This document shows, piece by piece, positions 15,220 through 16,683 of a stretch of DNA of 46,457 nt (position 1 is the first letter of the stretch; the number at the start of each line of letters is the position of its first letter). Source of the DNA: Candidatus Nomurabacteria bacterium (GTDB lineage: Bacteria; Patescibacteriota; Minisyncoccia; Phycocordibacterales; SBAW01); assembly GCA_943348815.1 (NCBI GenBank), contig CALQYT010000004.1, forward strand, positions 11,617-58,073. Direction: 5' to 3'. The notes beneath the pieces are model-generated. The model was given only the letters and a program-made list of their open reading frames with translations, made no database searches and had not been told where the DNA came from. Position numbers and translations under genes: made by a program.

Positions 15220-16683
15220 TATAATTAGAGTTTGATCCTAGCTCAGGGTGAATGCTGGCGGCGTGGATAAGGCATGCAAGTCAAGGGGACCGCAAGGTAA
15301 CCGGCAGACGAGGTAGTAATACGCAGGTACGCACCGAAAAGTCTGGTATAGCTCGCCGAAAGGCGGGGTAATCCCAGATGGCACGGCGACGTTAAAGGGG
15401 CAACCCGCTTTTTGAGCGGCCTGCGCAGCATCAGCTAGTTGGTAAGGTAATGGCTTACCAAGGCTACGACGCTTAGGGGACCTGAGAGGGTGACCCCCAC
15501 CGATGGGACTGAGACACGGCCCATACACCTACGGGTGGCTGCAGTCGAGAATATTTGGCAATGGGCGAAAGCCTGACCATGCGACGCCGCGTGCTGGACG
15601 AAGTCCTTCGGGACGTAAACAGCTTTTATGCGTGAAGAAGTAATTGACATTAGCGCATGAATAAGGGGCTCCTAACTCTGTGCCAGCAGGAGCGGTAATA
15701 CAGAGGCCCCAAGCATTACCCGGAATCACTGGGCGTAAAGGGTGTGTAGGTGGTCGTATTAGTCTTTCGTAAAAGCACTGGGGCTTAACCCCGGTAATGC
15801 GGGAGAAACGGTACGACTCGAGGACGCGAGAGGTAAAGGGAACTCATGGTGTAGGGGTGAAATCCGTTGATATCATGGGGAACACCAAATGCGAAGGCAC
15901 TTTACTGGCGCGTTCCTGACACTGAAACACGAAAGCGTGGGAATCGAACGGGATTAGATACCCCGGTAGTCCACGCCCTAAACGATCACGACTGGCTTTA
16001 GGGAGTATCGACCCTCTCTGAGGCGAAGCTAACGCGTTAAGTCGTGCGCCTGGGTAGTACGGCCGCAAGGCTAAAACTCAAAGGAATAGACGGGGACTTG
16101 CACAAGCGGTGGATCATGCGGCTCAATTCGATGATAAACGAAAAACCTCACCAGGGTTTGAAACGGAGACGATTGCCTTTGGAAACATAGGCGTCCGCAA
16201 GGCGGCTCCGCAGGTGATGCATGGTCGTCGTCAGTTCGTGGCTTGAGTTGTTCCCTTCAGTGGGGTAACGAACGCAACCCGCGTTGCCTGTTTTATATGT
16301 CAGGCGAGACTGCCCTCTCACGAGGGAGGAAGGTGCGGATGACGCCAGATCAGCATGTCCCTCTGATATCCTGGGCTGCACGCATGATACAATGGTCAAA
16401 ACAACGGGTCGCGACGAGGTAACTCTAAGCTAATCCTTATAAATTTGACCCCAGTTCGGATTGAGGGCTGCAACTCGCCCTCATGAAGCCGGAATCGCTA
16501 GTAATCGCGGGTCAGCTATACCGCGGTGAATACGTTCTCAAGTCTTGTACTCACCGCCCGTCAACTCAAGGGAGCCGGGAGTACCTGAAGCGTCACTTCG
16601 GTGGCGTCACGGTAAATTCGGTGACAGGGAGTAAGTCGTAACAAGGCACGGGTAGGGGAACCTGCTCGTGGAACAATTCAAAT
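15220..16683 (+). rRNA. rrs: 16S rRNA (Parcubacteria/OD1-type), unlinked from 23S, lacking the canonical anti-SD
   Basis: AGAGTTTGATCCTAGCTCAG at 15227, CCTACGGGTGGCTGCAG, GTGCCAGCAGGAGCGGTAATAC, ATTAGATACCC, AAACTCAAAGGAAT, AAGTCGTAACAAGG, h45 at 16647-16670; ends approximate. Confidence 0.98.

Follow-up and report, generated by a model that had tools for sequence, protein, structure and literature searches.

A 16S rRNA gene without an anti-Shine-Dalgarno tail in a Parcubacteria-type bacterium whose promoter geometry predicts many leaderless mRNAs

How does a bacterium start translation if the only 16S rRNA found in its genome ends without the sequence that pairs with Shine-Dalgarno (SD) sites? 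The question is raised by a 46,457-nucleotide stretch of DNA (referred to as the window) from a Candidatus Nomurabacteria bacterium, in which a full-length 16S rRNA gene lacks the CCUCC core of the anti-SD sequence. A sole 16S rRNA unable to pair with SD sites would mean that an entire free-standing lineage of bacteria can do without the docking step described in textbooks. Lineages without the tail are natural test beds for leaderless and coupled initiation carrying an entire proteome, and in such genomes starts will be mis-called by gene finders or expression designs built on ribosome-binding sites.

The window is part of a genome (referred to as G000) of 818,771 bases, assembled in 17 contigs with a completeness of 96.67%. 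The locus and the RNA genes next to it are composed as follows.

15220..16683, + strand, 16S rRNA gene, full length (RF00177, 1353.7 bits, model positions 1-1533)
16647..16670, + strand, helix 45, 10 bp with a GGAA loop, aligned to RF00177 with high posterior
16671..16683, + strand, 3' tail GAACAATTCAAAT replacing GATCACCTCCTTT, without CCUCC
17553-17626, strand opposite to the 16S gene, tRNA-Ile, the next RNA gene after 16S
19274-19360, tRNA-Leu, after tRNA-Ile

The match to the Rfam family RF00177 is untruncated and well above the gathering score of 50, which identifies the gene as a bacterial small-subunit rRNA gene, and it is the only 16S match in the whole genome. Because the match is full-length and only one was found, the locus is confirmed to be a genuine 16S gene, found in a single copy, and not a pseudogene. 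This outcome agrees with the first-pass annotation, which had described the locus as neither truncated nor pseudogenised; the further 16S copy with a canonical tail that it had allowed for was not found in the 96.67%-complete genome. The gene stands alone, with no 23S or 5S gene within the window. At 1464 nt it harbors no large insertions, which are present in the 16S genes of two relatives from the same genus (L014 and L015) and one from the same order (L016), where the conserved ends are separated by 2306, 2332 and 3622 nt, respectively. Large insertions in rRNA genes have been described for CPR.

The 3' end of the gene (16647-16683) reads CACGGGTAGGGGAACCTGCTCGTGGAACAATTCAAAT, exactly as quoted in the first-pass annotation. 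Helix 45 and its GGAA loop carry posterior '*' in the alignment to the end of RF00177, and the helix is 100% paired in 24 related sequences, in which two pairs have changed on both sides. Over the 14 terminal positions of the alignment, GGAACAAUUCAAAU stands opposite the model consensus GGAUcACCUCCUUu, and of the CCUCC core, which is typical of the family but not needed for membership, nothing is left but the middle U and the C after it. The letters and the alignment thus agree on a tail without anti-SD after an intact helix 45, and the variant tail is unable to form a Shine-Dalgarno helix. The CCCTCC at 16735-16740, i.e., in the trailer, was considered as a displaced anti-SD and rejected, as it falls within a variable hairpin and shows no conservation among relatives.

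Tails of this type end every related 16S gene of the order for which the 3' end was recovered. A 16S search of 41 genomes (G000 and 40 relatives) gave matches in 24, and in 21 of those the 3' end is within the retrieved loci (12 from the genus of the organism, 9 from further families of the order). CACCTCC is absent from all 21, while GGAWnnnTTC is common to them; G1, G2, A3, T8, T9 and C10 of the tail are invariant and positions 5-7 vary, such that a tail of this type is seen in 12/12 genomes of the genus and 9/9 genomes of the other families. Within the genus the consensus is GGAAYRATTCA[AC]AT. In a collection of 185,579 species, the genus-type pattern also turned up in 23 species representatives, the records of which are titled mostly Candidatus Adlerbacteria, Nomurabacteria or Paceibacterota, but also Kaiserbacteria, Minisyncoccia and Parcubacteria, and in some cases "Saccharibacteria". 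On these titles the organism, with a genome of 0.82 Mb, is placed among Parcubacteria/Paceibacteria (CPR).

A wider view was obtained from a draw of 171 genomes of the class, in 111 of which an anchor pattern covering both helix 45 and the tail was matched; all of these matches were classified, and removal of a spurious one left 110 real tails. By hand count, 38 of these tails contain CCTCC, 14 contain CTCC only and 58 contain neither, the latter being AT-rich and family-specific. In a draw from the phylum the anchor pattern was matched by 267 of 401 genomes, and among the matches listed, about half of the total, the tails are mostly the canonical GGATCACCTCCTTT. Partly eroded tails occur in other classes of the phylum (GGAACATTTCCTTA in family f34, GGATTATTTCTTTT in genome G092 and GGAATACCGCCTTT in genome G187 of family f104), so that the anti-SD has been eroded outside the class of the window as well. 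The earlier statement that such loss is rare and reported mainly in some reduced or symbiotic lineages is outdated for this group, given the 38/110 tails with CCTCC and the published figure of 48% for Parcubacteria (PMC9297842). The survey of 3' tails that had been proposed along with it bears out the loss, in 21/21 tails of the order (no CACCTCC) and 58/110 tails of the class (no CTCC).

Signals at the starts of genes were analysed using crude gene calls (open reading frames of at least 450 nt, with overlaps removed greedily and each start set at the first ATG), which gave 665 genes, 660 of them with enough upstream sequence. One of the motifs GGAG, GAGG and AGGA is found at -20..-4 in 12% of the 660 genes, as compared to 13% at the control position -60..-44, and the genome-wide combination of GGAGG, a start and an open reading frame does not differ from that with control pentamers (0.146 vs 0.089-0.146), i.e., the genome shows no SD usage. 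A system in which a variant SD pairs with a variant anti-SD was also considered and rejected; the complementary motif is not enriched 5-15 nt upstream of starts, where the 5- and 6-mers that could pair with the variant tail occur at expectation (e.g., TTGAA 10 vs 8.6 and TGAAT 5 vs 4.2).

The upstream k-mers that are most enriched are instead TATA, TATAC, TATAG, TGCTA and ATACT. The hexamer TAnnnT begins at -12 in 108 genes, at -13 in 53, at -14 in 36 and at -15 in 32, as compared to about 12 per position elsewhere, which gives a peak at -12 with z = 26.5. In total, the box is found at -15..-11 in 226/660 genes, compared to 54 and 57 at two control offsets, and 72 of 201 boxes (36%) are TGn-extended, where chance would give 1 in 16. 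A TAnnnT -10 hexamer that ends 7 nt before the ATG has the geometry expected of a leaderless mRNA, and because so many of the genes have the hexamer at about this distance from the start, many mRNAs are predicted to be leaderless. The leaderless promoters noted in the first-pass annotation are thus supported by the statistics of the sequence. About two thirds of the genes have no -10 box at leaderless distance, which weighs against a mostly leaderless mode of initiation. Distances between neighbouring genes on the same strand are frequent at -4 (28), -1 (10) and +2 (20).

There is also a small excess of SD-like sites: an SD-like 5-mer is present at -17..-5 in 35/660 genes, as compared to 17 in a control window, an excess that a model without SD does not explain and that is counted against it. 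The 35 genes have a median GC3 of 0.615, compared to about 0.58 (Mann-Whitney p = 0.004), and the simplest reading is that this minority was recently acquired. AAGGAGG positioned 5 nt before ATG, i.e., a textbook SD motif, is found in a minority of stand-alone genes despite the sole 16S without anti-SD. Two of the SD-like genes are located in the window.

8283-9251, + strand, NAD-dependent epimerase/dehydratase (sugar-nucleotide)
10793-11350, - strand, gene with no Pfam match

The relation between the state of the tail and the leaderless signal was addressed by applying the same crude pipeline to 17 other genome samples of 40-400 kb. In the comparison below, z describes the TAnnnT peak at -14..-11 relative to other upstream positions.

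Tail lost (including G000; at least 6 families), 10 genomes: z 2.2 to 26.5, z of at least 4 in 9/10, TGn 17-43%
Canonical tail, same class, 6 genomes: z -0.2 to 3.3, z of at least 4 in 0/6, TGn 0-16%
Partial tail, 1 genome: z 4.0 (8/69 genes), z of at least 4 in 1/1, TGn in 3/6 boxes
Canonical tail, other class (G091), 1 genome: z 3.5, z of at least 4 in 0/1, TGn in 11/52 boxes (21%)

These values suggest that the leaderless signal may track tail loss in the 17-genome sample, a lead and not a test, in genomes that are related, not phylogenetically independent, and represented by small gene samples. SD enrichment was found in none of the same-class genomes, with either a canonical or a lost tail (the six canonical-tail samples comprise 28-122 genes each), while SD is enriched in G091 from another class (GGAGG 25 vs 2.4 expected). 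The comparison suggests that disuse of SD may have preceded loss of the tail.

The regions that flank the gene harbor additional conserved elements.

15173..15190, + strand, 5' arm of the pre-16S processing stem, complementary to 16912-16929 over 18 bp without gaps
16691..16719, + strand, trailer hairpin 1 with apical CTCGTACGAG, beginning 8 nt after the tail
16719..16731, + strand, conserved single-stranded CTGAATCGGCGAT block, nearly invariant (columns 85-97 of alignment A1)
16765..16793, + strand, H-type pseudoknot, with S1 formed by 16765-16768/16779-16782 and S2 by 16772-16776/16789-16793
16912..16929, + strand, 3' arm of the pre-16S processing stem, 229 nt downstream of the tail

The first-pass annotation had described the flanking processing stem as intact. 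The stem is indeed present, and its 18 gapless base pairs exceed the shuffle maximum of 14 in a search for gapless complementary runs, but the 3' arm is separated from the tail by 229 nt rather than being adjacent to it, which had not been mentioned. Equivalent stems of 17-27 bp are above the shuffle maximum in 13/15 related loci, and the stem core CTTGTTCCGTTC is conserved and recurs in relatives. Folding of the whole leader and trailer regions as a duplex was uninformative (-81.7 kcal/mol vs a shuffle mean of -90.5).

The structures between the tail and the 3' arm were analysed in alignment A1, composed of 24 genus-type sequences that were found by a pattern in which the tail is fixed; tail invariance is thus meaningless there, and conservation of the tail was taken from the 21 3' ends discussed above. 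In hairpin 1, 6 of 12 pairs have changed on both sides and 96.7% of the cells are paired. In the pseudoknot, the pairs changed on both sides are 4/4 in S1 and 4/5 in S2, with 100% of the cells paired. The CTGAATCGGCGAT block and the pseudoknot are separated by a variable hairpin, and GGCGAT or GTCGAT recurs in other families of the order. The covariation score of the whole structure was reached by 0/500 shuffles, and slid controls are 30-40% paired. A comparison of the trailer to Rfam gave no match, the E-value scan yielding only chance-level values (E 1.3 and 5.1), and among 171 genomes of the class the sequence pattern of the pseudoknot was found only in G000, i.e., it is genus-specific and not class-wide at the sequence level. 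The trailer elements may be lineage-specific signals for processing of the pre-rRNA.

Searches for ribosomal and assembly factors, which addressed presence only, gave the following.

IF3, present, 42 bits
KsgA/RsmA, present, 192 bits
YbeY, present, 33.4 bits
RbfA, present, 44.7 bits
bS1-like protein, 372 aa, four S1 domains, 132.9 bits
bS21-like protein, divergent, 83 aa, gene adjacent to that for YbeY, 20.7 bits (under the cut-off of 27)

The bS21-like gene is located directly upstream of the gene for YbeY (contig C12 of G000, 9069-9603, - strand), with a promoter-like TGCTATATT 10 nt before the ATG. YbeY is an endonuclease linked to maturation of the 16S 3' end. Because the open frame of IF3 (contig C1 of G000, 192706-192885, - strand) extends 76 codons upstream of the first ATG, its start is probably a non-ATG codon, and a non-ATG start of infC is known elsewhere. 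No candidate for uL1 (PF00687) was found in the 96.67%-complete genome, whereas 14/14 control genomes were positive, a result to be read as "not found" and not as proof of absence. Nothing above the cut-off was found for Era in the genome, where the best score is 23.9 bits. Most CPR lack Era, which binds GAUCACCUCC, as stated in a review of this protein (PMC10582724).

Taken together, the data make it likely that the window carries the sole 16S found of a Candidatus Adlerbacteria-type Parcubacteria/Paceibacteria (CPR) bacterium with lineage-wide loss of CCUCC, in which initiation is SD-free and mostly leaderless and the anti-SD has decayed by relaxed selection. Translation would start without pairing of mRNA and rRNA, mostly on leaderless mRNAs, which would originate from extended -10 promoters with a hexamer that ends 7 nt before the AUG, while within operons initiation may be coupled where stop and start codons overlap or abut. 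Disuse would have led to decay of the anti-SD, in a lineage in which Era and uL1 had been lost as well. The residual GGAWnnnUUC pattern seen across the order suggests that part of the tail may still be constrained by ribosome assembly or by contacts with ribosomal proteins, and because this part is invariant order-wide, the decay appears not to be purely neutral.

The first-pass annotation had gone further and proposed a ribosome specialised for SD-independent initiation, which exceeds the evidence. Same-class genomes with a canonical tail also show no SD enrichment and the replacement tails vary by family, and relaxed selection with decay therefore explains the tail data no less well than specialisation does. 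In its strongest form, specialisation would make the tail, GGAWnnnUUCMAA, a functional element of a re-engineered initiation platform, which, for example, docks the bS21-like protein or bS1, or recognises a non-SD feature of the mRNA, and not a decayed remnant. We consider such an adaptive tail unlikely. It would account for the invariance of G1, G2, A3, T8, T9 and C10 in 21/21 members of the order, next to variable positions 5-7, and for the retention of the divergent bS21-like protein (20.7 bits, cut-off 27) and the four-domain bS1, but the tails in other families of the class are AT-rich and very different, the regions upstream of starts show no enrichment of k-mers that could pair with the tail, and the conservation could equally stem from processing of the pre-rRNA or from assembly contacts.

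The conserved trailer raises the question of whether the mature 16S instead reaches past 16683 and keeps hairpin 1, and perhaps the pseudoknot, on the ribosome, in which case the real 3' end and its function would differ from those implied by the Rfam boundary. Hairpin 1 begins only 8 nt past the tail, both structures are strongly conserved with compensatory changes, the arm of the processing stem is found 229 nt downstream, and one contig from an RNA library (X20) spans 16622-16731, with 4 differences somewhere in this span. However, the depth of the X20 contig is 16, compared to thousands for the 16S body in the same run; contig depth and contig ends cannot define RNA ends, RNA libraries can contain DNA, and the pseudoknot pattern is genus-specific (1/171 class genomes, i.e., G000), and we regard this explanation as still less probable than an adaptive tail. 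In the RNA runs the depth drops steeply past about 16676, but this drop was set aside as a sign of the mature end, because helix 45 is conserved and contigs from other organisms match it, which confounds the depth. The least credible explanation, to which we give almost no weight, is an artefact, i.e., a misassembly, a pseudogene copy or an unassembled second 16S with a canonical tail. The assembly is a 17-contig, 96.67%-complete draft, and rRNA copies can collapse in assemblies, but the tail is common to 21/21 related 3' ends, including those of relatives assembled in 4-8 contigs with one 16S match each (G018, G013, G009 and G004), and the Rfam match is full-length. Contigs of two other samples also cover the tail, one from another public sample (X2, 16644-16713) and one from a sample of another study (X3, 16666-16732), each with 2 differences somewhere in its span. 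The only canonical 13-mer elsewhere in the genome (contig C1, minus strand) is antisense inside a gene coding for 244 aa, with no helix 45 adjacent, and is attributed to chance.

Decay through disuse of the anti-SD thus remains the preferred explanation. A more far-reaching possibility, which we put forward tentatively and with some doubt, is that erosion of the anti-SD in Paceibacteria is not random drift but marks lineages that have switched wholesale to leaderless mRNAs via extended -10 promoters. In the sample examined, z is at least 4 in 9/10 tail-less genomes as compared to 0/6 canonical-tail genomes of the same class, with SD enrichment in neither group. If the possibility holds, SD-guided docking of the 30S subunit would have been fully replaced in this clade, and in this genus the trailer hairpin and pseudoknot would direct how the altered 3' end matures independently of Era.

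Loss of the anti-SD in the group of the window is real but already known, as it was published in 2022. Among Parcubacteria, 48% were found to carry the anti-SD motif CCTCCT, the loss of which overlaps with the uL1-less group (Tsurumaki, Saito, Tomita and Kanai 2022, RNA 28:1041; PMC9297842). As in that subgroup of CPR/Parcubacteria, CCTCCT is missing at the 16S 3' end and uL1 was not found here, and on these sequence features the organism is a putative member of the anti-SD-lacking, uL1-lacking Parcubacteria. The published account is one of motif detection rates, within which the replacement tail, SD usage, promoter geometry and trailer structures are not described (PMC9297842). A limited literature search gave no report in print of a link between tail loss and leaderless promoters, of the apparent SD disuse in canonical-tail relatives or of a conserved pre-16S trailer pseudoknot; of these, the leaderless link and the pseudoknot in the trailer could be followed up.

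In leaderless-mRNA-rich bacteria such as Mycobacterium, other Actinobacteria and Deinococcus, a -10 box is found about 7 nt upstream of the start in many genes. Leaderless-rich bacteria such as Mycobacterium keep the canonical anti-SD and also use SD-led genes. The organism of the window resembles these bacteria in the position of the -10 box and differs from them in having no SD route. In M. tuberculosis, MazF removes the anti-SD tail of a canonical 16S post-transcriptionally under stress (PMC12274833; bioRxiv 10.64898/2026.10.23.761202), which also results in ribosomes without anti-SD, but here the gene itself encodes none.

Loss at the level of the gene has been described for 128 taxids without a consensus anti-SD, with no variant SD that matches the variant tail (Amin et al. 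2018, PMC6107228; Lim et al. 2012 cited therein). The present case is similar in that the loss of the anti-SD is accompanied by the absence of SD motifs and of a matching variant SD. It differs in its phylogenetic position, as the cases of Amin et al. are concentrated in some genera of Bacteroidetes, Mycoplasma and Carsonella, and Parcubacteria are not named in the account of these cases (PMC6107228). The ribosomes of Bacteroidia ignore SD in a different manner, i.e., the canonical anti-SD is kept and sequestered by bS21, bS18 and bS6 (Jha et al. 2021, PMC7797042; McNutt-type follow-up, PMC13000453). Initiation that is SD-independent genome-wide would be common to Bacteroidia and the organism of the window, whereas a canonical anti-SD that could be sequestered is absent from the 16S found here. 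The canonical-tail relatives from the same class, in which SD is not enriched, are closer to the situation in Bacteroidia.
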